64,000 nt of DNA from Candidatus Altimarinota bacterium (GTDB lineage Bacteria > Patescibacteriota > Gracilibacteria > BD1-5 > UBA2023), in contig JANOIH010000014.1 of the NCBI GenBank assembly GCA_031407385.1, positions 1,555-65,554 of the forward strand. The letters are read 5' to 3'. Position numbers and translations under genes: made by a program. Positions 11,730 to 64,000 of the stretch are shown here, in pieces (the first letter of the stretch is position 1; every line of letters begins with the position of its first letter). A model generated the notes under the pieces. The model did not search any database. It was not told the origin of the DNA and saw only the letters and a list, made by a program, of their open reading frames with translations.

Positions 11730-11964
11730 ATCAGCGATACTTCCAGAAGCAGGAATTTTGCTAACAAGACTTGCTACTTCACTCTATATACTCGCTAGAA
11801 CAGCACTAAGAGATTCTCATTGCTCTACACGAGCAAGAAAATTGCGCGCGATATCGATATGCTCTTCCTGAGATGAAGAGAGAGGAGCAACTACCTTAGA
11901 AGTCATATATAGAGTATAAATAATATACTCTATATATTCATAAATTTACTTTTGTCAACTCCAT

Positions 11965-12372
11965 CTACCCACCGATCCCTCTCGTCACTACCCAGAGCCA
12001 CTTCTCGGGATTGCTCATGTCTCGAGTTGGGTCGTTGCGAGCCTTTATCGTGTCGGAGATGATAGTACGAGTATCGATATCGGCGTTGCCGTTGATCTCT
12101 TCTTCTGTGACGATGTTGATGACTTCTTCTCCAGGGAGCCTCTTGTTCTGCGTAGACTTGGCCACGAGTGTCTCGTAGGCAGCAGTATGGATGAGGGATG
12201 CGAGGAACTCCTTCTCTGCGTTGCGACGCTCTACGTTGTCACTCTGAGTTTTGAGCGTGTTGGTGAAGCTGTCTGTCTCGTACTCCTGCACCTTATAATA
12301 CCCGATCAGATAGATCAGGTAGACGACGACGGCGATGAGACCGATGAGGATGTAGTGAAAACGGGAATACAA
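11965..12372 (-). CDS. small single-pass membrane protein
   Basis: Intact 135-aa ORF with N-terminal transmembrane segment YILIGLIAVVVYLIYLIGYY. Confidence 0.55.
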   Translation of the reverse strand: MYSRFHYILIGLIAVVVYLIYLIGYYKVQEYETDSFTNTLKTQSDNVERRNAEKEFLASLIHTAAYETLVAKSTQNKRLPGEEVINIVTEEEINGNADIDTRTIISDTIKARNDPTRDMSNPEKWLWVVTRGIGG

Positions 12373-12498
12373 GTGAGGAGGAGATAGATTATAGGAGATA
12401 GGAGATAGCTATGAAACTAAACCCTATTGCTTTTCGGAGTCTTTTTTCTACAATATTCAGAAATCCATAATCTCCAAACGAAAATAACTCCTCCTCCC

Positions 12499-14449: not shown

Positions 14450-14498
14450 TTCTCGGAGCTCCTCCAACAACTACAAACTAAATTCTAAAAACTATTCT

Positions 14499-15122
14499 AT
14501 GAAAGCTCCTCTTTTCGACATCAAGGGAAAACAAAAAGGTACAGTAGACCTCGAAGCAACACACTTCGGAGTCACTCCGAACGCAGGCCTCATCCACAAG
14601 CTCCTCATCCTCCAACAGGCGAACGGACGTATCGCTATCGCTCACGCGAAGCATCGTGGTGAAGTCGCTGGTTCGACTCGCAAGATGTTCAAACAAAAGG
14701 GAACTGGTAACGCTCGTATGGGTGATCGTCGGTCTCCTATGCGTCGTGGTGGTGGTGCCGTATTCGGACCTCGCAGCGAGCAGAACTGGTCAGTCGCTAT
14801 GAACAAGCAGGAGCGTCGTCTCGCCCTCTACTCACTTCTCTCGACGAAGGCTACATCTGCATCTATCAAGATCGTAGAGACATTCGCTGGAGTTGGAGAA
14901 AAGACAAAGACAATGGCAGGATATATCAAGACTATCGAAGCTCGAAAACCTCTCTTTGCTATCCTCGCTACTGAGAAGAACACTCTCCTCGGAGCGAACA
15001 ATATCCCAGAGTCTCGTATAGTGAATGTCGAATACCTCAATCCACACGATCTCCTCAAGTACTCAGATATCGTCTTTACAGAAGCGTCACTCGCTCACCT
15101 CTACGAACACTTCTCAAAATAG
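14499..15122 (+). CDS. rplD: 50S ribosomal protein L4
   Basis: GTGNARMGDRRSPMRRGGGAVFGP, and position after rplC. Confidence 0.95.
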   Translation: MKAPLFDIKGKQKGTVDLEATHFGVTPNAGLIHKLLILQQANGRIAIAHAKHRGEVAGSTRKMFKQKGTGNARMGDRRSPMRRGGGAVFGPRSEQNWSVAMNKQERRLALYSLLSTKATSASIKIVETFAGVGEKTKTMAGYIKTIEARKPLFAILATEKNTLLGANNIPESRIVNVEYLNPHDLLKYSDIVFTEASLAHLYEHFSK

Positions 15123-16391: not shown

Positions 16392-16462
16392 TCGTCTCGA
16401 TATCTTGATTCTTCTAGAACTCGGTATCTCCCCATTCAAAACTAAATTCTAATTTCTCTCCT

Positions 16463-16726
16463 ATGACTCGTAGTCTTAAAAAATGACCTTACATTGATAT
16501 TCGCGTATCGAAGAAAGTCGATGCACTCAATGCTTCTGGAAAAAAGACAATTATCAAGACATGGTCACGTGCCTGTACTATTGCTCCAGATTTCGTTGGA
16601 CACACATTCGGTGTACACAACGGAAAGTCTCATATCCCAGTATTCGTTACTGAAGATATGGTTGGACACAAACTTGGAGAGTTTTCATTTACTCGCATCT
16701 TCCGTGCTCATTCTGGTAACAAATAG
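16463..16726 (+). CDS. rpsS: 30S ribosomal protein S19
   Basis: MTRSLKK-G-PYID, with the conserved Gly encoded by TGA at 16484-16486. Also [10 protein letters not shown]. The standard-code track misses this gene. Confidence 0.95.
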
Positions 16727-19320: not shown

Positions 19321-19400
19321 ACTTAGAACTTAGAATTTCGGACTTAGATATACAAGTCCAGATCCAAGACTCTAAGCTCTAAGCTCTAAAATCTAAAATC
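19321..19400 (+). repeat. intercistronic short tandem words and inverted repeat (L14-L24 spacer)
   Basis: ACTTAGA occurs 3 times, CTCTAAG twice and AAATCTA twice. ACTTAGA is the reverse complement of TCTAAGT, so the two halves can pair. Inner hairpin GGACTT..AAGTCC. Confidence 0.6.
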
Positions 19401-19408
19401 TATCTACT

Positions 19409-20578: not shown

Positions 20579-20680
20579 TATTACAGAATCCAGGAATTAG
20601 AATCCAGAAGCAAGTTTTCTCTAAAATACTACTCCTGATTCATTCTCCATTCTCAATTCTAAATTCTAAAATCTAAAATT

Positions 20681-21067: not shown

Positions 21068-21166
21068 AAAATAGTATCTAGAGGATATGGGATAGAGGAT
21101 GGTGATGCTACACCCTTTCTCACACTTCCACTCACTCTACAATCTACTCTCTAAAATCTCAATTTT

Positions 21167-21715
21167 ATGTCTCGAATCGGAAAACAACTTATTACTATAC
21201 CAGCTGGAGTGACAGTAACCATTGCGGATATTGTGACTATCAAGGGCCCAAAGGGTACCCTGACTTTTAACATCCTCACTGGAGTGAAGGTCGTGGAGGC
21301 AGAAGGAAAGATCCAAGTCTCTATCGAAAACCAAGAAGACAAGCAACAGCGCGCCTTCTGGGGACTCACTCGTGCGATGCTCCAGAATATGGTAATCGGT
21401 GTATCAGATGGGTACTCAAAGTCACTCGAGATCATTGGTGTGGGTTACAAGTTCGATATCAAGAATCCTACCAAGATCGAGCTCTCTATCGGTTTCTCTC
21501 ATAAGGTACTCGTCGATGCTCCAGCTGGAGTTACTGTCGAGGCTGATCCAACAGAGAAGAATCGCATCATCATCAAGTCTCACGACAAGCAGCTCCTCGG
21601 ATACTTCGCAGCATATATCCGTTCACTCAAGAAGCCTGAACCATACAAGGGGAAGGGTATCCGTTACGTCGGTGAACATGTTCGTCGCAAGGCTGGTAAG
21701 ACCGCAGGAAAATAA
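21167..21715 (+). CDS. rplF: 50S ribosomal protein L6
   Basis: MSRIGKQLITIPAGVTV... and PEPYKGKGIRY. Confidence 0.96.
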   Translation: MSRIGKQLITIPAGVTVTIADIVTIKGPKGTLTFNILTGVKVVEAEGKIQVSIENQEDKQQRAFWGLTRAMLQNMVIGVSDGYSKSLEIIGVGYKFDIKNPTKIELSIGFSHKVLVDAPAGVTVEADPTEKNRIIIKSHDKQLLGYFAAYIRSLKKPEPYKGKGIRYVGEHVRRKAGKTAGK

Positions 21716-32347: not shown

Positions 32348-32387
32348 GCCGGTCAACTTCAATACTAAATTCTAATTACTATTCATT

Positions 32388-32753
32388 ATGGCACGTATCG
32401 CTGGAGTCAATCTCCCTGATTCAAAACATGCAGAGATCTCACTTATGTATATATATGGTGTAGGTCGTTCACTTGGACAACAGATCCTCACGAAGGTAGG
32501 GATCGCTTGGAACAAGAAGATGGGTGATCTCTCAGAATCTGAGCTCGATCTCATCCGTGACGAACTCAAGAAGTATATCATCGAAGGTGATCTTCGTCGA
32601 GAAGTAGCAGGTAATATCAAGCGCCTCACGGAGATCGGTACATACCGTGGATCTCGTCATAAGAAGCGTCTCCCAGTTCGTGGTCAGCGCACCAAGACGA
32701 ACGCTCGTACTCGTAAGGGTAAGGCAGTCGCTATCCAGAATAAGAAAAAATAG
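32388..32753 (+). CDS. rpsM: 30S ribosomal protein S13
   Basis: [10 protein letters not shown]... and [23 protein letters not shown]. Confidence 0.96.
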
Positions 32754-41870: not shown

Positions 41871-41945
41871 TGGGGTATCGCCAAGCGGTAAGGCAGCGGA
41901 CTTTGACTCCGCCATTCCTAGGTTCGAATCCTAGTACCCCAACCA
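41871..41945 (+). tRNA. tRNA-Gln (anticodon UUG), CCA encoded
   Basis: 75 nt. Near-identical in architecture to E. coli tRNA-Gln (U1:A72, GCC/GGC D stem). Anticodon loop CTTTGAC, T arm CTAGG-TTCGAAT-CCTAG, 3' ACCA. Confidence 0.9.
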
Positions 41946-42135
41946 ACATATAACGTCAAGATACTTTTCTCGACAAAAAGAGTTCCCTGTATACAATATT
42001 CGCGTTCGAACACAGTAAATACTCTCATTATTTTCTCTATTCGGATTCAAATACAATCCATATTTATCTCGCTTCGTTATAAGGTTCCAAGTATCTGCTA
42101 TGGCAGATCCCTTATATGAGCTAACTTTTCTTTTT

Positions 42136-42447
42136 ATGATAGCAGTAGTAGAACTCGGTGGGAAGCAGTATACAGTCGAAGTCGGTATGTCTCTCGTCGT
42201 CGATCACCAGCACGTAGATGCTGGAGCGAGTTTCGATGTACCAGCGATGCTCATCGCTTCTCCAGACGGAGCTCAGGTAACAGTTGGTACTCCTACGATC
42301 GCAGGATCAAAAGTGAGCTTCACCGCTGAAGAACACTTCAAGGGAGATAAGGTTCGTGTATTCAAAATCAAATCAAAGAAGCGCTATATGCGTACCCAAG
42401 GATTCCGCCCACACCAGACTCGCCTCACAGTGACTGCTATAGCGTAG
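42136..42447 (+). CDS. rplU: 50S ribosomal protein L21
   Basis: MIAVVELGGKQYTVEVG... FRPHQTRL. Confidence 0.93.
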   Translation: MIAVVELGGKQYTVEVGMSLVVDHQHVDAGASFDVPAMLIASPDGAQVTVGTPTIAGSKVSFTAEEHFKGDKVRVFKIKSKKRYMRTQGFRPHQTRLTVTAIA

Positions 42448-42524
42448 TTTGGATCAGATTGCCAGATATCTGCATGTAGATCACTGCAGAGGTATCATGG
42501 GCATTTTATTCCTAAAAACTCTCG

Positions 42525-43667
42525 ATGACTCCATCCCTCAATACCCGTGCCAGACTCGCGAGAGCTGCACGCAATAATGTGCCTCTTCAGAGCGCGACAG
42601 AGACGTTCCGTAAGTTCAAGTGGTTCACACTCTGTGTTGCACTCCTGTTACCGATATATCCATCACTGTCTCTGCTTGGTTCCGATGCGACAGCGCATGG
42701 AGCGGATTATGACGAGACGAGTATTATCACAGCATATAGTGATGACTCACTCGGTGAGAGTTCTTATTTTTCTGAAAATGGTCTCATCGCTCTCGATGGG
42801 ACATTGTCTGAGGATCCTGTACGAGAGACCATCGCCTCATCGACCGGCACAGAGATAGAGTCAGTAGAACAGGCTGATCACAAAAAATCACCAGAAATAC
42901 TGCGCTATACTATAAAGTCAGGTGATACCCTCGCGAAGATATCTGATCAGTACAATGTGAGTACTGATGCGATCCGCTGGGCCAACGATATCTCTCTGGA
43001 TACACTCAAGATCGGTACTATCATCAAAGTTCCACCAACCTCAGGAGTCATCCATATCGTGAAGAAGTGAGACACACTCGGAGCGATAGCCGCGAAGTAT
43101 GATATTGCAGCCCGTGATATATCGAGTTTTAACCAGCTCTCTGACTGAGATAGTCTGCGTATCGGGAAGGAGCTCATGATCCCTTGAGCACAGAAGAACA
43201 CTCCGATCGCAACCCTCCTGAAGACGACACCAGTGGTCAATCCTCGCGCCGTCACTCCAGTACCACAAGATAAGCCAGTCGTCCGTCCTATCACTGTCGA
43301 TGCGAGCGGACTGAAGTCGAGCTATGCGATCGCCTATACAGGAAAAGGCCGAGGATTCGTCTGAGGGAACTGTACATGGTATGTCGCACAGAACAAGAGT
43401 GTCACATGGCGCGGGAATGCCGCCGCATGGATGAAGAACGCTCGTGCTCAGTGAGTCAAGACAGGATCAACACCAGTTCCAGGTGCGATCATCCAGTTCT
43501 CCGGTCGTGGATACTCTCGCGCATACGGACACGTCGGTATCGTCGCTGATGTGACCGATGACTACGTGATCGTGAAGGATATGAACTACCGTGGACTCTA
43601 TGAGGTGACGATCCGCAAGGTGAAGAAAAACGATCCAGCGATCGATGGATATATATATGTAGACTAG
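42525..43667 (+). CDS. peptidoglycan hydrolase with two LysM domains and a CHAP/NlpC-like domain
   Basis: YTIKSGDTLAKISDQYNV and HIVKK-G-DTLGAIAAKYDI (LysM). G-GNCTWYV...GHVGIV (Cys/His CHAP). Six TGA. TAG stop at 43665-43667. Confidence 0.85.
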
Positions 43668-43678
43668 TCTCTATGAGA

Positions 43679-43708
43679 AAATCCCCTCTGACTTCAGAGG
43701 GGATTTTG
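43679..43708 (+). terminator. rho-independent terminator
   Basis: AATCCCCTCTG-actt-CAGAGGGGATT followed by TTT. Confidence 0.65.
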
Positions 43709-43747
43709 ATTTGACAAAAAATACATAAAGTATATATTTACAGTTAT

Positions 43748-44053
43748 ATGAATACACTTACAGACATACACAGAGTAGCGAAGGGTACTCAAAAAGAAGC
43801 TATAGGCAGTCTTTGAGATGAGCTACTTTTTAAGTATCGTTCACCCGATGAGATAACTAGACTACAAGAACAAGCAGATATCCTCTTTCCTCTTCTTGAA
43901 ACGTGCAGGAGAGTATGAGAGATATATGCACAACACTCGGCAATATATCAAAAAACAGATAATCCAACTCTCCATATTATTGATACTTGATGATTCGCCC
44001 CAGCATATGATACACTTCTTTCTCTATTGAAAAAGTCAGAAAAACCTCTCTAA
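43748..44053 (+). CDS. hypothetical 101-aa protein
   Basis: Open with 4 TGA read as sense. TTGACA promoter upstream. Hairpin terminator AAACCTCTC..GAGAGGTTTTTT at 44040-44071. Confidence 0.45.
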
Positions 44054-44075
44054 ACCTAGAGAGGTTTTTTGTTCC

Positions 44076-44238
44076 CGTCACCCCCGAAGGACAAGGAAAT
44101 CCACCGTTTCCGTCATTGCGAGGAACGAAGCAATCCAGCGTTTCTAGTTTTCGTCATTCTGAGGTTTCTGTAGCTCAGAATCTTCCTAACTTGTTTCAGA
44201 GTCCAATCCATGTACTTTTTGTAGAAAAAGTACCAAAA
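44076..44238 (+). repeat. GTCA-hairpin modular repeat array, copy A
   Basis: Units CGTCACCCCCGAAGG...ATCCACCGTTTC (44076-44110), CGTCATTGCGAGGAACGAAGCAATCCAGCGTTTC (44111-44144) and TCGTCATTCTGAGG..CTCAGAATC (44151-44186). Tail hairpin GTACTTTTT-gtag-AAAAAGTACCAAAA (44212-44238). Confidence 0.75.
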
Positions 44239-44361
44239 CTATTGGGGTCAGGAAAACTCGTTCGCTCCGCTCATCTTTTTTCTTTCTCTCATCCGACTCA
44301 AACAGTTCCTTCCCCCAAACCCCACTGAGTTCACTGTTTTCATCTTTCTGATAGAAAAATA

Positions 44362-44390
44362 AAAAATCCCCCACTTTCGTAGGGGATTTC
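44362..44390 (-). terminator. rho-independent terminator of the RRM-protein gene
   Basis: Minus strand reads AAATCCCC-tacgaaagt-GGGGGATTTTTT. Confidence 0.6.
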
Positions 44391-44409
44391 TGATGGATTC
44401 TAATAGATA

Positions 44410-44694
44410 TTAGAACTTGCGTGGAGCGCGCTCCTCACGAGGCTGAGCCTCGTTCACTGCGAGCTCTCGACCCATAACTTCCTTACCGTTCATGGCTTCG
44501 ATAACTGCTGCCATATCTTCCTCGTTAACATCGACAAAAAGGAAACCCTTCTTGCGTCCTGTCTCACGATCAGTAGGCCAGAAAAAGTCTGCAACTGGTG
44601 CAACTTCTTCGAAAATAGCGCGAAGCTCATCAGCTTCGATACGAAATGGAACGTTTCCGACGAATAGTCGTTTTGTACCTGCGGTGGTGCTCAT
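44410..44694 (-). CDS. RRM-type RNA-binding protein
   Basis: RNP2 LFVGNV and RNP1 KGFLFVDV. 94 aa. Confidence 0.88.
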   Translation of the reverse strand: MSTTAGTKRLFVGNVPFRIEADELRAIFEEVAPVADFFWPTDRETGRKKGFLFVDVNEEDMAAVIEAMNGKEVMGRELAVNEAQPREERAPRKF

Positions 44695-44891
44695 AGAGAG
44701 AAAAAAGAGAAAATAAAGTGCCGGGACTGAAGCGATTCTCTCGGGGATCTTCTAGAGACTCGAGGAACGAAAAAGACTTCGACTCCCAGATTGTACCCAT
44801 TTTCTCTTGGATTGCAAATTTTCTCGTATTCTCCCTTGATTTTCGCATGCAGACTCATACACTAGTGGGATATATTTTTGTACAATATCGT

Positions 44892-45590
44892 ATGAGTGAT
44901 CGCCAGAACATACCGAATCATATCGCCTTCATCATGGATGGGAACCGCAGATGGGCCAAGAAGCTCGCTAATATCGTATCGTTCGGACACGAGAGTGGCG
45001 GAGCCAATGTAGAGAAAGTCCTCTCAATCACACTCGAAGCAGGTATACCGTATACCAGTATGTGGGCCCTCTCGAAGGAGAATATTATCGAGCGAGATCC
45101 AATCGAGATTGCGACGATATTCGAACTTTTTGAATCCAAGGTTCCGAAACTGATCCCAAAGCTCCAGAAGGCGGGAATTCGCATGGAGATCATCGGAGAT
45201 CTGTGGTTAGTACCGCCCGCTGTGCGAACGATCCTGCTCGATGCGATCGAAGCCACCAAGGCAGGAGACAAGATGACCTTCATCCTCGCGATCGCCTACA
45301 GTGGACAGGATGAGATCGTCAGATGAGTGAAGCGTGCCATAGCCGAAGGGGTCGATCCACAGACACTCACAGAACGCGAGTTCCTCACATATCTCGACTC
45401 AGGCCGATATCCTCCACCAGATCTCATCGTGCGTACAGGTGGGAGTATCCGTCACTCGGGATTTTATCTCTATCAGTCGGCGTATAGTGAGTACTACTTC
45501 ACCGATACACTCTGGCCAGACTTCGGGAGAGTAGACTTTGATGCGGCACTCGCATCCTATGCTGGGAGCGGACGCAATTTCGGGAAGTAA
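44892..45590 (+). CDS. uppS: undecaprenyl (cis-prenyl) diphosphate synthase
   Basis: IAFIMDGNRRWA... DLIVRTGGSIRHSGFYLYQSAYSEYYF. Joined through TGA at 45324-45326. Confidence 0.92.
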
Positions 45591-45614
45591 GATGCTTTGA
45601 TTATTTTGTGTACC

Positions 45615-45729
45615 AGTCACCCGCGAGGTACGAAGCAATCCAGTGTTCCTCGTTCCTGTCATTCCTGCGTAGGCAGGAATCCAGCGTTTCCTTTTCCTTC
45701 CGTACTTTTGTAACCAAAAGTACCAAAAG
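45615..45729 (+). repeat. GTCA-hairpin modular repeat array, copy B
   Basis: AGTCACCCGCGAGGTACGAAGCAATCCAGTGTTCC (45615-45649) and TGTCATTCCTGC-gtag-GCAGGAATCCAGCGTTTCC (45657-45691). Tail hairpin GTACTTTTG-taacc-AAAAGTACCAAAAG (45702-45729). Same order and orientation as copy A. Confidence 0.75.
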
Positions 45730-45910
45730 TTCTTCTTTGGTTTGTTCGTTTTGTATTCTGTTCCCGACTTGTTTTCTAGAATTTCAAACTCAGGAACATT
45801 TGAAATTCTCTCGAAAACTGCGTCGACAGAATATCAAAATTCACAAAAAGAAGAAGCAAATTGAAACAACAGATACATGAAATCTGCACTATCTCCTATC
45901 ACTATCACTT

Positions 45911-46804
<894 letters not shown>

Positions 46805-50105: not shown

Positions 50106-50921
50106 TTATACTGTCTGTATCAGAATCTCCCCGAATCGCTTTATTCCAGCATAATCAGCAAAAAATGAATACTCCCACTGGGGGTATTTTTGCACTTCTT
50201 GTTCTGCGATCTCTCGTTGGTCGAAACCGAATTCAAATAGTAGGCTGGTAGACTGGTAGGATGGTAGATTAGCTAGAGCAGATAACTCTTCGAATAGGCG
50301 TTCGTACATCTCGAATCCAGTTCGCTCTCAGCCGAAGAGTGCCAGACGAGGCTCATGAACCGTGTCGGCACTCATATTGATCCAGTCTTCCGCCTTGATA
50401 TAGGGGAGATTGGTGAGGAAGACTACGGAGGAGATAGAAGAGAGGAGATAGGAGATAGGCAGAGCAGAGAGCAGGTCAGAGACGATGAATTGGGCTCTCT
50501 TCTCTCCATAGTGAGCTCGGAAGTTCTGCTCGGCGACAGCGAGCGCCTCTGGAGATATATCGAGGAAGATCACCTCATCCGCAAGATCTGCGACACTCGT
50601 CCCGATTATCCCAGAGCCACAACCGATATCGATGACTATGGACTTGCTCTGTCATTTCGAGTAAAGAAAATCTGTTTCTGTGATTTTCGCAATCGATCCC
50701 GCTCAGCGGGACTGCGCTGTTTTCTGAGCAAGATGTCTCGGCTCCGTTATCACTTCGCTCGACATGACAGCAACTGAGAGGAGCTGACGCGCACGTCTCA
50801 CGAGGCTCTCTGTCTCCAGTCTCGGGATCAGGACATCAGGCGTCACGAGATAATCTCTACCGAAAAAGTTTACCTTTCACTCTATATATTCCACAGGATA
50901 AGTGTCGGGGAGAGAGGACAT
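50106..50921 (-). CDS. prmC: release-factor glutamine N5-methyltransferase (HemK/PrmC) carrying an in-frame repeat insertion
   Basis: VLIPRLETE, VIDIGCGSG and TNLPY (NPPY variant). Frame checked codon by codon across 50581-50820. It lacks the usual N-terminal helical domain. Confidence 0.85.
50649..50770. repeat. GTCA-hairpin repeat element, copy D (MITE-like, 13-bp terminal inverted repeats) inside prmC
   Basis: CTGTCATTTCGAG (50649-50661) versus CTCGACATGACAG (50758-50770), whose reverse complement is CTGTCATGTCGAG. Internal hairpin ATCCCGC-tcag-CGGGAC. Confidence 0.75.
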
Positions 50922-51846: not shown

Positions 51847-53628
51847 ATGCGTTTCCATATATCCCCACAAAAAAATAACAATAGGTATCAGCGTATCGTC
51901 GCCTCACTTGTACTCTCTCTGTTTCTCATGACTCCAATGGTCTGGACAAGTACGGCAATGGCTCGTACTGTAACTCCAACAACTCCTGTTCTCCAGCCTG
52001 GAATCCTCCAAGTCAGAAGTACGGCGGTCAGGACAACAGACAATATCAGCTATAAGCAGAAGGTAGTACTCGCGAGACAGCTCATGCAAGTAGCGAAGGC
52101 CAGTAACAAGCGTCTCTCATTCGTCAGTGCTATGCGTCAAGTGAATAAGACCCTTACAATCACACCAACGAAAATGCTGATCGCCAAGGCACATCTCCCA
52201 GCTAAGAAAACAACTCCAATTCCTGTACTCAACTCAGCTCCTACTGCTCCAGTAGTATATGCTGGTGGTGGAGGCGGTGGATCTACGAGTAGCTCGACCA
52301 CCTCGACTACGACGGTAGCAACTCCAACTCCAGTCACCACAACGGTATCTACGCCAGTCACCACGACGGTATCTACTCCAGTGACGACGACCGTATCATC
52401 TCCAGTCTCGGCTCCAGTAGTAGTCGCTCCTACTGCTCCAACTGCTCCGGCCCCAGTGGATCCAGTTGTAGTCGCTCCAGCTCCGACTGCTCCGGCCCCA
52501 GTAGAACCAGTTGTAGTCGCTCCGACTGCCCCAGCTCCGACTGCTCCAGTAGTAGTCGCTCCGACTGCCCCAGCTCCGACTGCCCCAGCTCCGACTGCTC
52601 CAGCTCCAGTGGCTACTCCGACAGGAACAACTCCGATCAATATCGTGAGTCCACAGGATGCAAATCTCGCGAAACTCTCCGAATACCAGAAGGTGATGTG
52701 AGGATTTGTCGCGGATAACCTGATGATATTCATGAATATGCCACAATCAGCAGCAGGGATAGATGGAGCGTCATACTATATGGCCAACATCATGAATGAA
52801 TATGCCAAATATGGGATCACTCCGATATTCGTATTCGAACCAACGGGTGACAATGGTGCTCAGCTCGATCTCGGCAAGCTCAAAAATGGTGACTACAGTG
52901 CCAATATGGAGCTCCTCTTCTCGAAGATCAAAAATGATCGAAAAGTAACAGAGGATAAGCTCGGACTCATGGTCCCATATCCTGAGATCAATACTCCAGC
53001 GTTCAATCGGGCGAACTTCGTCCCAGAGAATCTCCCTACTATGGTGAATATATTTTTCGATAGTATCAAAAAATCATATCCAAATGTGAAGGGTGGACTC
53101 CTCCTCGATGCGAAGTCATACGATGTAGATAAGAGTTGGGGGCAGGGTGTCGCTCGGAGTTTTGCTCCATATATCACGGGGATCAAGCCCGGATATATCC
53201 AGACATTCGGTCTTCAGGGATTCCCTTGGGCGAGCAATGATGCAAGCGTCAAGGTCTACGATCCAACAGTGTTCCTCCCGACGGGTATCACCGCAGAAGC
53301 GGCGAATATCCTCGGAACCAAGAATATCTGGTTCAATACCGGAACGATGAAGAGACAGTATCCAACGAACACAGTTAATGTGACTCCAGCAGAGCGAACG
53401 ACTACGTACAATGGTATCATCAACCAGGCGACAGCACTCCAATCACAAGGATATACGATGATGGTCCATATCTTTGCCCAGGACAAGTTCTCGATGGGAG
53501 AAGGGATCGATTGGTCTTACATAGAGAATGCCAATGATGGAGTATTGTCGGCCCATGAGGGCGTATTTGCTACATTCCTCAAACAGGCTCAGTCAAAAGG
53601 ACTCAAGGTCGGACTCTTCGATAGATAA
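51847..53628 (+). CDS. secreted protein with Pro/Thr/Ala/Val-rich linker and C-terminal putative glycoside-hydrolase-like domain
   Basis: ORFs 51847-52701 and 52723-53628 are in one frame, joined by TGA at 52699-52701. Signal/transmembrane segment at the N-terminus. The function of the C-terminal domain is a guess. Confidence 0.65.
52327..52610 (+). repeat. coding tandem repeats (TVSTPVTT about 3 times, then VVAPTAPAP-type units)
   Basis: Periodic CCAGTCACCAC.ACGGTATCTAC units with a 24-nt period, then GTAGTCGCTCCGACTGC... units of about 45 nt. Confidence 0.8.
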
Positions 53629-53682: not shown

Positions 53683-56600
53683 TTATGGAGAATAGAATGC
53701 TGCGACAATATCGCTCGCCGCCTTGCCACGTGTGACACCGTCAGATACTACGGCTACCATATCACCGGTAGCAGTCTTCTTGATCACGGCGATCAGCTTG
53801 TCGATCTCACCCTGCGAGATGGTATCATTGGGACGGAATCGGGCGTTTGACTTATTGATCCAGCCCATAGCGACACCGTAGTTGATATAGTTGATGAGAC
53901 TATGTTTTTTTGGTACATCACTGAATTTTTTCCCTACGGTTGTGACAGGAGTCGTGTATCCATGGGCGATCGAGAGTAACTTGATGAATTCACCACGAGA
54001 GATGAGTCGATCGGGAGAGACCTTGATCCCATTGTTCATCACTCAGGCTCGTACGAGGGTCTCGATCGCGGATCGCCATGGACTCGAGGCGAGATCACGA
54101 GCCAGGATAGTGATACCTGAGCTGATAGGAGCTCCGACTATACTGGTGGTACTAGGTACTGTAGTCGTAGTAGATGCAACAGAAGACGAGATAGATCATC
54201 CTCCATCTCCACCTCCACCTCATCATCATGTCCCTCCACTGGTGATACCTGTTCCTGTAGTCCCAGTGCTAGTAGTCCCAGTGCTAGTTGTACCGGTTCC
54301 AGTCGTCCCAGTTCAAGTCGTACCAGTTCCAGTAGTCCCAGTACCCGTCGTACCTGTTCCAGTTGTACCGGTTCCCGTCGTACCGGTTCCACTGCCGCCT
54401 CACCCAGGTATCACTATCGGAGTACCGACGATCCTGATATCATCGATCCAGACGAAGTCGTTGCTATCACTGAGATTCTCTCGGATACGCAGAGCAAATC
54501 ATGGGGCATCCGCGGCATCTGCAGGGAGCATGATAGAGTGAGAGGTCAGAGTCTCGGGTGTAGTTGATATCGGAGTTGGTATTGCTCAGATGCCGTTGCT
54601 GGTCGCGATCTCCGTATCGTCTGCCGCATAGAACATATGGACAGCGAGCGAGCTATCTATAGTCTTGATCGGTGTCCAGGTCGTACCATCGGTCGTATAC
54701 TCCAGTACCACTGAGTCTCACGCCTCCAGCGTGTCCCACTTGTAGCAGAACGAGAGACGGATATCGTTGTACCCGAGAGTTGAGACAGATCTCCTGAGAG
54801 TCTGATTGCCCGTTGGATCAGTTCCGACGATCTTCACGGCACGTAGATTGGTATCTGGTCCGAGACGACAGGTGCCATCACTCATGATAAAATTGGAACC
54901 CCTACTACTATCCCAAGCATCGAAAGTCTGATCCTCAAATCAACCAAAGAACAGAGTCTGAAGAGTAGGATTGCCTACCGGAGCGGAGATCGTGATGATG
55001 ATCGACGCTTGGGCCCCTTGTCCGAGAGAGTCCTCGACAGAATACGGGATCGTGACTCTACCGTTAAATCCTCCCACAGGAACAAATGTCACAATACCAC
55101 TCGATGGACTCACCGTCACTGTTCCTTCTGGTAGCACCAGAGTCGTCTGTGATTCGCTGATGAGTATATTGAGATCGAGAGTCGAGCTATAGAGTGAGTT
55201 GCCAGAGCCAAATGCCTGATCATTCGCGAGGATATCTGGTATCGTGAGAGTAGTATTGGTCACTCAGGTGACGATATCATCACGAGCAATCGGAGGAGCA
55301 AGGAGAGAAGTACCCCCCATCCATACATAGTTATCGGTAGTGATCCAACCAGTGCCTGATATACTATGATATACTGAGGCTGTTCTGGCTCAGGCTGGAG
55401 TCGTGAATGTCCGAGTGAAAGTCTGCCACACAGGAGACGCTGCAAGAGTACCAAGAGTATAGAATGAGTGTGTCCCATTGGCAAGGCCAATATCGACAAT
55501 CACATTTGATACAATATTGGATTGGTAACTATCTGAGAATATATATGGCGTATTCTCTGCTACGGATACAGGGTCAAATGCCCACTTTGCATCTCCGCTT
55601 ATATACCGAGTGATCTCTACTTTTGCAGCCCTTTGGCTAGTATCTCCGAGTACCGGGTATGTCCATACCTGCTCATTGTTCCCGAACCATCATCGGATCC
55701 AGTTATCTGGTGTATCTGGGAGTACTGTATTTGCTTCCATTCCTGGATTCCTGATGAGGTTCCCCGTCGTTACTGGAGAGTTGTTGAGATACATATTCAC
55801 CGAAGATGTGGACGCAAATCCACTCGGATCCGTGACCGTGAGGATGATCTCTACATAGATATCAGTCGCACTATGATCAGGAGCCACAAAAGTTGTCTCA
55901 GGGCCTGTCGCACTCTGGAGAATGTGCGTATGTATATTGTGATGGAGGAGGACTTGCCAGGCAAATCCAGAACCCGAGATAACTCCCGTCTCTGGATCTA
56001 CTCCCGTTCCTGAGAGCCGGATGATATCTCAGGTGTGATAGGTGGATCAATTGGTCGGTGATAGTATCGTCACTGAGGGTCTCTGATTGCCTGCGAATAT
56101 CCTCGTACTCCGCACATCGACTCCACCACTTCCATCTCGGACCGAGAGGATCGCATCGTAGGTACCATCTGCGATATAGGTATGAGTGACTAGGGTACCT
56201 GTAGCACTATTCCCATCACCAAAATCCCAACTATATGAGAGTGTATCTCCATCTGGATCACTCGATCCTGACGCAGAGAATGTGACTGTGATCGGCAGAG
56301 GTCACCCAGATATATCAGTGCTGAGAACCGCCAGTGGCTTCCTATTTCATAGGGTATATATCACTCGTTTGACCTCACCCGTATAGATCGCTATATAGTA
56401 GAGACTCCCGTCGGGGGCCGTCTTGATATCTACTGGTCACCCTGGATCTGTGATGAGGGATTCTTGAGAGATGATAGTATTGTTCGCACCGAGTGTGACG
56501 AGTGTCATCATGTTCAGAGCATAGTCACCATAGACGTATGATCCGATATATGCACTCGGGAATGCAGATCCGACGAAGTCACCCCCCACCACACTCCCCG

Positions 56601-57594
56601 CTCCTTGCGGACTGTGCTGATACTGGTAGAGTGGTGGAGTGACGCCTCCTGTAGTACTACATCCAGCAAGTCATCCAACAGTCGTACCTACTCACTCATA
56701 GCATGGCCATCCGAGGTTGACTCATCGGCCCACGATATCGAGCTCTTCCCAGGTACTCCAGCCGACATCACCACCGAATAGGATATTGGTCCCAGGCTGG
56801 AAAGCGAACCGAAACATATTCCTCACACCGAGAGCCCATACTTTCGACCTATTCGCATTCCCATTTCCATCATAAAATGGGTTGTCACTCGGAGCCGTTC
56901 CATCAGCTCTGATACGGATCACCTTGCCAGCGAGACTATCGAGACTCTGTGCCCGTAGAGACCTGACATCAGCAAAATCGAAGCTCGCACCATCTCAGAG
57001 TGATGCATAGAGATATCCATCTTGGCCGAACTGGAGTCCTCCTACCGAGTGGCTCGCATCATCAGAGGGGATACAGTCAGCGGTGACGGGGTAGTCCTCA
57101 CACGATGGAGCTACGAGAGTCCCTCATACGGTTCCCAGAAGTACGACCCTAGATGACCCGAGGGCAGTATCTCCAATGACGGTGACTCGTACGATCCGCC
57201 CCGTCTTGGGTCATGCGGTATTGGCCCCAGGGGAGTTCTCATAAGTATATGAGAGGTAGAGATACCCGTTCGTTGCAAAATTTGGATCGATTGCTATCCC
57301 GATGAGTCCACGATCTCCATAGGTATTCACATCGGTGAGGGTGATGACTGGGGTACTCGAGAGGGTTTCGTTTTTGATCACTCTGACAGCTCCTCACTTC
57401 TCAGCGACGAATATCCTCCCATCAGGAGCGAAGGCAAGGGCCGTAGGAATAGTGAGCCCAGAGACGACGCTCTGTGCCTCGAACCCACTTGCCGCAAAGA
57501 CGCCCGTGATATGCACCACGAGAGATAATACTCATATACTCAATCAGAGTACGCCTCTTGCGAGTAGAGAGATGAGAGATTGGAGAGGTGGCAT
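53683..57594 (-). CDS. 1303-aa surface protein: PQQ-type sugar-dehydrogenase-like beta-propeller, PKD domain, CBM-like domain, Gly/Thr linker and SLH-like C-terminus
   Basis: All codons checked: about 28 in-frame TGA and no TAA/TAG. Contains GDRGLIGIAIDPNF, DPDGDTLSYSWDFGDG (PKD) and a C-terminus ISRGEFIKLL...INYGVAMGW resembling SLH. ATG at 57592-57594. Confidence 0.8.
54196..54405 (-). repeat. coding Gly/Thr-rich tandem repeat (GTGTT about 10 times) and poly-Gly run
   Basis: 15-nt periodic units GGTACGACGGGAACC-type. Three consecutive TGA codons lie at 54220-54228. Confidence 0.8.
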
Positions 57595-63296: not shown

Positions 63297-64000
63297 ATGA
63301 ACATCCTCTCTTCTCCATCACACACTACACTCCAGTCTCTCTGGTGGGATGAGTTCACTCGAGCACTTACGACCCTCGCAACTCAAGATGAGATATATAT
63401 CGGACTCTCAGGTGGATCATCACTCGATATCTTCTATGCGCATCTTCGCACTCATCTCTACTCTATCGATACACAGACGCGTAGTCGCTTGCGGTTCTGC
63501 CTCCTCGATGAGCGTATCGTGAGCGAGGATCATCCTGACTCGAATCTGTGACAGCTTCGCAAAAAATTCCTGACAGCGCTCGTGGAAGAGATGATTATCA
63601 GTGAAGATCAGATCATCTCTGTGTTTCCGTCATCGCGAAGTATGATCAGGTCCAGCGCTTCTGAAAATACTGAGCATGGATTGCTTCGTTCCTCGCAATG
63701 ACAGGAACAAGAGGAGTCATCTCTAGCAAAGTCCTACTCTCTCCTCATCCCTAGGGTCGACATCGCACTCGTCTGAGTCGGACCAGATGGACATATCGCA
63801 TCCCTCTTCCCACATCATCCACTCCTGGACTCTACTCATGTATGATATCTGGAGATCACTGATTCACCGAAGCTACCATCACATCGTATCACCGTCTCAC
63901 CTGCCATGCTCAGATCTGCACCGTACGTCTTCGTCGCGTTCATGCGAGGCAAAGAAGTTGCATATAAACAGTTCCAGGATAACACTCTATCTGTGGCGGA
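63297..64000 (+). CDS. pgl: 6-phosphogluconolactonase (3' end off window) carrying an in-frame repeat insertion
   Basis: GLSGGSS... and V-G-VGPDGHIASLFP. It starts 3 nt after the zwf stop. Frame is open to the window end with TGA as sense. Confidence 0.85.
63629..63702. repeat. GTCA-hairpin repeat element, copy C, inside pgl
   Basis: GTCATCGCGAAG (63629-63640) ... GGATTGCTTCGTTCCTCGCAATGAC (to 63702). The latter is the exact reverse complement of the GTCATTGCGAGGAACGAAGCAATCC unit at 44112-44136. Confidence 0.75.

Follow-up and report, generated by a model that had tools for sequence, protein, structure and literature searches.

CGTC-tagged repeat arrays and a hairpin-led palindromic element in the spacers around uppS of a Gracilibacteria genome

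The RRM-protein gene and uppS of a Candidatus Altimarinota bacterium (contig JANOIH010000014.1) lie between two intergenic arrays of short hairpin repeats, and the question raised by this locus is what these repeats are and how they came to bracket the two genes. The analysis concerns a stretch of 64,000 nucleotides of this contig, referred to as the window, which together with a 3.8-kb public contig makes up the data covering the source organism. The two spacers are probably mosaics of two kinds of small, non-coding, hairpin-forming modules, namely arrays of repetitive extragenic palindromes with a CGTC tag (CGTC REPs) and, abutting them, palindromic elements of 125-160 nt led by a hairpin named P1. 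Both kinds of module would be non-autonomous and would have spread by insertion. Other loci used for comparison are given L numbers.

Array A (44076-44184) consists of three hairpin units and array B (45615-45683) of two, all of them arranged head to tail on the + strand. Each unit is built from a C/T/A-GTC tag, a hairpin with a stem starting AT, and a CCA-type tail. The units are joined by linkers of 7-14 nt that resemble (G)CGTTTCC. The five units are the following.

44076-44103, + strand: unit 1, CGTC-ACCCCC..AAATCCA, degenerate, with a broken stem and the tail CCA.
44111-44137, + strand: unit 2, CGTC-ATTGC-gaggaacgaa-GCAAT-CCA.
44152-44184, + strand: unit 3, CGTC-ATTCTGAG-10-nt loop-CTCAGAAT-CTT.
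45615-45642, + strand: unit 4, AGTC-ACCCGCGAGG..GCAATCCA, with a decayed 5' arm and the same 3' half as unit 2.
45657-45683, + strand: unit 5, TGTC-ATTCCTGC-gtag-GCAGGAAT-CCA, canonical, with an 8-bp stem and a 4-nt loop.

Four further units are found in the window, forming two inverted dimers that are both in frame in coding sequence (see below), rather than the three additional copies counted in the initial annotation of this DNA. The 64 kb thus contain nine units, spread over four loci. The tag is CGTC in the units starting at 44076, 44111, 44152 and 63628, TGTC in those at 45657, 50650, 50769 (- strand) and 63703 (- strand), and AGTC in that at 45615. The stem begins and ends with AT in seven of the nine units. 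The other two, units 1 and 4, stand first in their arrays, begin with AC and have a decayed 5' arm, GTCACCCSCGARG, in common. Unit 3 has an 8-bp stem and a 10-nt loop, and the ATTGC, ATGTC and ATTTC units have 5-bp stems and loops of 10-23 nt, which are GA-rich in several units. The 3' tail is CCA in six units and CTT or CTG in those at 44152, 50650 and 50769 (- strand). The initial annotation had described the units as tandem and about 34 nt long; the head-to-tail arrangement holds, and the start-to-start spacing ranges over 34-42 nt instead of being fixed.

The similarity among the units is borne out by formal statistics. The pattern GTCAYY-N10-24-AATCCAGYGTT has 3 matches in the window, compared to 0.00 expected from dinucleotide-preserving shuffles of the window, and the looser pattern GTCAYY-N8-30-TCCAGYG has 5 matches, compared to 0.59 expected. 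A non-circular test was made with 1.95 Mb of loci that had not been selected through units. There, GTCAT-N-ATCY flanks enclosed 3 further Watson-Crick pairs in 88 of 849 cases (10.4%), in comparison with 1.3-2.0% for three control flank patterns. This 5-8-fold excess of pairing over the controls peaks at an inner length of 16-17 nt and involves mostly distinct stems.

The units fit an established class of repeats. The CGTC REP superfamily comprises the families CGTC-1 to CGTC-4 in five host phyla, with Patescibacteria not among them (Di Nocera, De Gregorio & Rocco, BMC Genomics 2013, PMC3733652). Its members have an unpaired CGTC tag, often TGTC (variants TGTC and CCTC), stems of 8-9 bp that almost always start with AT, loops of 4-5 nt (aberrant in some hosts) and a CCA tail (PMC3733652). 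Inverted dimers are the dominant arrangement, head-to-tail copies are 'negligible' and intragenic copies occur; most copies lie 3' of open reading frames (ORFs), in convergent or co-directional spacers, and there is no flanking or dedicated transposase (PMC3733652). Unit 5, with its 8-bp stem and 4-nt loop, is a textbook member with all of the defining features, and the other units have most of them. The tag, the AT at the start of the stem and the CCA tail are shared with the class, as are the inverted dimers, the in-frame intragenic copies and the similarity between distant hosts. Array A is located in a convergent spacer and array B in a co-directional one, 3' of uppS. There are also differences from the class. 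The host belongs to the Patescibacteria (Gracilibacteria), in several units the stem is 5 bp and the loop 10-23 nt and GA-rich, two head-to-tail arrays are present beside the two inverted dimers, the units have a GTTYCY 5' extension, and they are coupled to the P1 element. The GTTYCY hexamer beside the units was considered as a target-site duplication and rejected, as it is found on at least 10 of 14 5' flanks, compared to about 6 of 14 3' flanks (counted by eye). The hexamer is more plausibly an extension of the unit at its 5' end, specific to the lineage.

Individual units recur letter for letter in distant bacteria. At least 120 contigs carry the exact 26-mer of unit 2, from GTCA on; among them are contigs of Bacteroidota, alpha- and beta-proteobacteria and Patescibacteria, and a single one of Bacillota. 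The pattern of unit 5, with one free loop base, is likewise present in at least 120 contigs, from a dozen or more phyla (among them Chloroflexota, Planctomycetota, Nitrospirota, Desulfobacterota, Bacteroidota, Proteobacteria and Patescibacteria). In a more speculative reading, this letter-identity across a dozen phyla hints at a universal, host-encoded recognition factor. Head-to-tail arrays similar to A and B are also found in L077, L090, L093 and L314. A phage origin was rejected: of 2.9 million viral contigs, 4 contain the 25-mer of unit 2 (the 26-mer minus its last base) and 31 the tail hairpin described below. Plasmid sequences gave no matches. Clustering of ORFs revealed no recurrent gene and no transposase within 2.5 kb of 147 unit sites or 149 tail sites, the neighbours being housekeeping genes and repeat translations or spurious ORFs. 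The immediate neighbours of the two arrays are the genes for L21, a LysM protein, the RRM protein and UppS. In four other loci (L018, L020, L033 and L044), CGTC REP dimers are located within a larger element of ~150 bp with inverted repeats of its own (tatagtcgtcccaaagcaaactatgg...). These four are titled 'Helicobacter pylori PMSS1 isolate MiH-14oct19-106', an organism label that looks wrong for a metagenome-assembled genome (MAG) from a lake.

Each array is followed, 18-27 nt on, by a hairpin of the form GTACTTTT-loop-AAAAGTAC-CAAAA (44212-44238 and 45702-45728). The two arrays therefore have the same architecture and orientation, as first described: both are on the + strand, with units and then a tail hairpin. 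In the window, GTACTTTT-N3-10-AAAGTAC is found at 44212-44233 and 45702-45723 only, compared to 0.00 expected from dinucleotide-preserving shuffles. The tail hairpin had been taken as the end of each array, and it is present at both; it is not part of the units, and opens a separate, previously undescribed element of a different repeat family. The arrays had been ended at 44238 and 45729 accordingly. The sequence up to there is as described, and the repeated DNA reaches ~44337 and ~45860. The two elements are of different types.

44212-44337, + strand: A-type tail element, with 107.4 bits (E 2e-24) against the covariance model R1, and also supported by alignment and covariation.
45702-~45860, + strand: B-type tail element, with P1 at 45702-45723, then CCAAAA and a 126-nt, near-perfect long hairpin at 45732-45857.

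In the A-type element, P1 (44212-44233) is GTACTTTTT-gtag-AAAAAGTAC and is followed by CCAAAA. The body has a long-range helix, GGGGTCAGG/CCTTCCCCC, around the conserved segments AAAACTCG ... CTCAAACAGTT, and then AAACCCC. The B-type element gives a partial match to R1 (45702-45779, 39.7 bits) and has a fold z-score of -5.2.

At least 120 contigs contain P1 with its invariant stem, and they come from Patescibacteria, Clostridia, Balneola, Bacteroidota and other groups. In the Patescibacteria form, CCAAAA comes next and then a 12-bp long-range helix (helix 2), two invariant blocks of the internal loop (AAAACTC and CTCARACAGTT), a variable insert and finally AAACCCC. Helix 2 has compensatory changes in 11 of its 12 pairs, and 92% of the cells are paired, compared to 78% in shuffles (a value reached by 0 of 500) and 40-57% with a slid partner. 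R1 gives 22 full-length copies above 70 bits, 21 of them in Patescibacteria loci and one in the window, as well as a short form of ~72 nt in Clostridia. Two or three copies are present per 8 kb in L124, L230, L247, L214 and L313. A gathering search of Rfam with the window and 32 related loci found tRNA, tmRNA and 5S only, and a permissive search of 43950-45950 at E<=10 found nothing relevant for the units or the tail element. A scan of JGI metagenomes for B-type copies gave no exact match, and literature searches with the sequence strings and the spurious-peptide strings gave nothing relevant. P1 was also considered as a promoter and rejected for its poor fit to the sigma-70 and Bacteroidetes consensus sequences.

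Elsewhere, P1 and CCAAAA head different bodies that are conserved and look structured, in Balneola (L206, L208, L250, L254, L274 and L296, with ~130 nt after P1) and in other Patescibacteria (L229, L306, L300 and L287). Several of the Patescibacteria bodies contain GAGGAATCCCCCTGAT. An Rfam scan of L206, L208, L254, L229, L306, L300 and L287 gave no match.

Units and tail elements are associated well beyond the window. In Patescibacteria loci, same-strand CGTC units are located within 100 nt upstream of tail hairpins in 13 cases, compared to 0.58 expected (~20-fold). The distance from unit to tail is 12-29 nt, in 10 independent loci, and the combination of array plus tail is therefore a recurrent composite.

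The two blocks are located in a region with the gene order L21, LysM protein, small ORF with its terminator, region A, terminator, RRM-protein gene, uppS, region B and two polyprenyl-synthase genes. Their coordinates agree with the earlier description of arrays that flank the RRM gene and uppS.

44040-44075, + strand: intrinsic terminator of the upstream + strand ORF, with a 13-bp stem and a T run (inverted repeat, terminator scan and sequence); left edge of mosaic region A.
44362-44391, - strand: intrinsic terminator of the RRM-protein gene (terminator scan; the contig derived from RRM mRNA ends at 44399); right edge of mosaic region A.
44410-44694, - strand: RRM gene.
44892-45590, + strand: uppS.

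Both blocks are lineage-specific insertions that are multi-copy in the community. The spacer between uppS and the prenyl-synthase gene is 320 nt in the window, compared to 2-23 nt in seven of nine relatives (L122-L126, L129 and L132). In L127 and L128 it is 140-158 nt of unrelated AT-rich sequence with no repeat. A 681-nt contig of a strain ~90% identical joins 45526 to 45909 by 77 nt instead of 382, so that this strain appears to lack block B. On the other side, downstream of its RRM gene, L122 (the closest relative) has one terminator and neither an array nor repeats. A tail element in L125 was considered as the orthologue of array A and dropped, there being no RRM gene between it and uppS.

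A check of copy number in the metagenome reads, as had been proposed, revealed a 3-26-fold rise in depth over the repeats in the source metagenome, from 15 in the flanks to 52-59 for array A and 182-399 for array B and its tail, with the B-type element as the most repeated segment. The samples that contain this population are of freshwater sediment. Loose ends include copies of a unit alone, starting at 45652, copies of a tail alone, starting at 45702, and copies spanning both, and units are fused to other units or to tails, including a new unit, GTCATCCTCGCGTATGCGGGGATCCAGCGTTT. These loose ends and joints show that the modules can be separated and recombine. In the metatranscriptome, contigs that span the RRM gene end at 44399. 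Further contigs, which correspond to tail A (44211-44324), tail B (45703-45861) or single units with 1-9 mismatches apiece, represent other copies. Some copies are thus present in RNA pools, with the reservation that these contigs are unstranded and could include DNA.

The initial annotation had proposed a REP/MITE-like family, and this reading is upheld by the match to a published superfamily, the multiple copies in the source metagenome and the absence from the orthologous spacers of relatives. It had also called the ORFs at 44116-44328 and 45608-45880 artefacts of the repeats, correctly: both are confined to repeat DNA, match nothing in Pfam and lack an equivalent in relatives. The minus-strand ORF at 44186-44374, on repeat DNA and with no Pfam match or counterpart in relatives, is likewise an artefact. 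What the initial annotation had missed is that the family is bacteria-wide and already described, that the tail opens a second, larger element, and that the other copies are in-frame intragenic dimers.

These dimers depend on the genetic code of the host. In-frame TGA is abundant in nearly every long ORF of the window, and uppS, read through an in-frame TGA (45324-45326), gives a full-length UppS match. The nearest relatives by UppS are Gracilibacteria MAGs, at 63-72% identity. Because of the TGA-rich ORFs, the read-through in uppS and the Gracilibacteria relatives, genetic code 25 was used for the window, in which TGA is, judging from these reading frames, a sense codon. The two dimers are the following.

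50650-50769, in prmC/hemK (gene on the - strand, ~51000-50190): inverted dimer with a + unit at 50650-50674, a - unit at 50730-50769 and a structured spacer.
63628-63703, in pgl (6-phosphogluconolactonase; gene from 63297 to the end of the window): inverted dimer with a + unit from 63628 and a - unit at 63677-63703.

The prmC dimer contributes ~40 extra residues, with two TGA codons, between the PRxETE motif region and the GxGxG S-adenosylmethionine-binding motif. In an alignment with Thermotoga maritima HemK from the Protein Data Bank, 46 residues of this PrmC are opposite 6. The pgl dimer is in frame and encodes ...VFPSSRSMIRSSASENTEHGLLRSSQGQEQ..., with one TGA read through. L026 has the same dimer at the same site of pgl (2649-2738). 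The two Pgl proteins are 62% identical, and the two dimers are 85.6% identical at the DNA level, so the DNA of the dimer is better conserved than the gene around it. A clean insertion in pgl was rejected, as the Pfam score is not improved by removal of the dimer (121 compared to 118 bits); by this comparison, the dimer replaces a variable segment. A similar dimer in L319 has a different context, with no PrmC match anywhere in the locus. The in-frame dimers are readable only because TGA is sense in this host, and the TGA codons that come from the tag and the spacer are tolerable for the same reason.

How would such spacers have formed? In the explanation that we consider probable, the modules are non-autonomous and would be spread as single-stranded hairpins by an enzyme supplied in trans. 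We infer mobilisation as single strands because the layout of a hairpin plus a tag is common to the substrates of RAYT and IS200/IS605 enzymes. New units may land preferentially beside hairpins that are already present, above all immediately 5' of the tail element, and would in this way give rise to arrays. Any effects on the neighbouring genes, such as protection of RNA 3' ends, termination or the spacing between uppS and the prenyl-synthase gene, would be secondary. The result may be compared to the mosaic spacers formed by Neisseria NIMEs and E. coli BIMEs.

Several observations weigh against this explanation. Neither a transposition event nor a target-site duplication or a mobilising enzyme was observed, and mobility is deduced from presence/absence and copy number only. 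The depth of the empty-site contig is low (3.5). Units 2 and 4 and the dimer units have 5-bp stems and 10-23-nt loops, and head-to-tail arrays were 'negligible' in the 2013 survey; with these short stems, long loops and head-to-tail layout, the arrays are therefore atypical members of their class. Letter-perfect identity across phyla is unusual for lineage-restricted selfish repeats. Finally, the presence of units and both tail types in metatranscriptome contigs is compatible with a role at the RNA level, and the strong covariation of the long helix in the tail would also fit a functional RNA.

The alternative that survives best, although we consider it rather less likely and it is compatible with an origin by insertion, is that the arrays are functional cis-acting RNA, with 3' hairpins that protect mRNAs, attenuate read-through or uncouple uppS from the prenyl-synthase gene. 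Roles of this kind at mRNA 3' ends have been proposed for E. coli REPs. Array B is directly 3' of uppS between co-directional genes, the kind of position where the survey places most CGTC REPs (PMC3733652). In addition, the T.G wobbles in the unit stems sit on the tagged strand (ATCCTCGG..CCGGGGAT), and units and tail copies are found in the metatranscriptome contigs. Against this, array A is located between convergent terminators, outside both transcription units, the RRM mRNA contig ends at 44399, and the relatives do with a uppS spacer of 2-23 nt and no array. The tail elements show no orientation bias relative to flanking ORFs (from crude gene calls), two of the units are decayed, and the RNA contigs may contain DNA. 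The use of wobble counts to assign a folding strand was dropped, as the signal is weak and units and tail contradict each other.

A second alternative, distinctly doubtful, concerns the tail element, which could be a small structured RNA gene with P1 bound by a conserved protein, a long helix and an internal loop, the CGTC units being frequent insertions beside it. The compensatory changes in helix 2, the invariant blocks AAAACTC and CTCARACAGTT, the 22 full-length copies and the RNA contigs over 44211-44324 and 45703-45861 are in its favor, as is the ending of L299, a small hairpin and then a T run. Palindromic DNA would give the same 'covariation', however, and the wobble asymmetry is weak and favors the opposite strand (16 A.C compared to 8 G.T). 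Moreover, the element is multi-copy per genome, with two or three copies per 8 kb, its genomic context and orientation are not conserved, and no Rfam family matches. Beyond P1, the body is wholly different from one lineage to the next, and the two copies in the window differ from each other in the same way.

It is very unlikely that the two arrays serve as the termini of a composite mobile unit, or as recombination substrates through which the RRM-uppS pair is moved or deleted. They are in direct orientation, 1.5 kb apart and similar in architecture, and the metagenome contains joints from ~44138-44146 to ~45656-45702. These joints carry unrelated inserts, with the exception of a go-back joint from 45688 to 44106 with no listed insert, and so represent other loci and not a deletion. 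The order RRM, uppS, prenyl synthase is kept with no arrays in L122 and L123, and L127, L128 and L132 have the same genes, with RRM on the other strand and no arrays. uppS is, in addition, essential. The bracketing of RRM and uppS is incidental, because the gene set is conserved without the arrays in relatives and the joints between the arrays, all but one, contain foreign inserts.

A CRISPR-like array, a chance low-complexity pattern or an assembly artefact can practically be dismissed: the repeats are short, regularly spaced and hairpin-forming, and an independent public contig (Logan; 3,770 nt) ends inside unit 5, but the units differ from each other and abut with linkers of 7-14 nt and no unique spacers, 0 matches are expected in shuffles, the same units are present in hundreds of unrelated assemblies, and the public contig is 100% identical over 41912-45681, and therefore the sequence is real and the repeats break assemblies.

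The mosaic reading also agrees with what is seen in other repeat systems, with differences in each case. CGTC-1 corresponds to Neisseria dRS3, and CGTC-1 and CGTC-4 to Rickettsia RPE-6 and RPE-4 (PMC3733652). In the dRS3 repeats and NIMEs of Neisseria, clusters of 20-nt palindromes are interleaved with other repeat families in long mosaic spacers, and the spacers here have this layout too. The partner here is the P1-hairpin/long-palindrome element, in contrast to the RS or Correia elements of NIMEs. dRS3 is an integration site for Nf filamentous prophages, and nothing of that kind is seen here. The Rickettsia repeats RPE-4 and RPE-6 belong to the same superfamily and are in frame in housekeeping genes, like the prmC and pgl dimers, but the frames here cross TGA codons from the tag and spacer.

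The GTAG REPs and REPINs, which are mobilised by RAYT (TnpA-REP) transposases, and the E. coli BIMEs share the conserved unpaired tetranucleotide 5' of a hairpin, the extragenic location, the dimers and clusters, and the presumed recognition of a single-stranded hairpin. In comparison, the tag here is CGTC/TGTC and not GT[AG]G, with GTAG present in loops only, there is no cluster of Y1 transposase-like neighbours near the 147 unit sites, and the sequences are cross-phylum rather than species-specific. A RAYT flanked by CGTC units is not known (PMC3733652). Miniature inverted-repeat transposable elements (MITEs) with long terminal inverted repeats, such as Correia/NEMIS, RPE-1 and ERIC, are comparable to the B-type body, a high-copy, non-coding, near-perfect palindrome of 126 nt; they differ in that neither a target-site duplication nor a parent insertion sequence was identified here, and in that the cross-phylum invariant hairpin is at one end only.

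Several other features of the window were observed. A 126-codon ORF at 43670-44050 (MRKSPLTSEG...KKSEKPL), whose reality is uncertain, runs to the terminator at 44040-44075 and has no Pfam match. Tandem coding repeats of 15 nt (and 9/45 nt) are present at 54216-54404 and 52411-52617, within very large low-complexity ORFs; these ORFs, at 53683-57594 (- strand, 28 TGA codons) and 51847-53628, probably encode repetitive surface proteins. The AT-rich motifs AAACTAAATTCTAA... and CTAAAATCTAAAATCTAT are recurrent in the spacers of the ribosomal-protein cluster (14461-14502, 16439-16466, 19369-19403, 20642-20676, 21134-21168 and 32362-32389) and may represent promoter or spacer motifs. An unusually long gap of 769 nt (11730-12498) contains a perfect 13-bp palindrome, TATATAGAGTATA-aataa-TATACTCTATATA, at 11906-11936.

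The CGTC REP class was already described as bacteria-wide; new here are the Patescibacteria host and the undescribed tail element. An old and poorly understood class of repeats is thereby extended to the reduced genomes of the candidate phyla radiation, where spare DNA is scarce, and the repeats are placed in a normally tight operon junction and, in frame, in two housekeeping enzymes. For annotation, two spurious ORFs are flagged and the assembly breaks at this locus are explained. The exact conservation across phyla and the ~20-fold association with the tail bear on how CGTC REPs spread without a transposase of their own. A bolder proposal, which we regard as tentative and unlikely on balance, is that the P1-led element (GTACTTTT-N4-8-AAAAGTAC-CCAAAA with a covarying helix) is an undescribed cross-phylum family coupled to CGTC REPs, in which either the invariant hairpin would be recognised by a conserved enzyme or protein that binds single-stranded nucleic acid, or the element would be a new, widespread small RNA. 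If this is true, the coupling to P1 could explain how CGTC REPs, which have no transposase, are copied, through piggy-backing or targeted insertion alongside.

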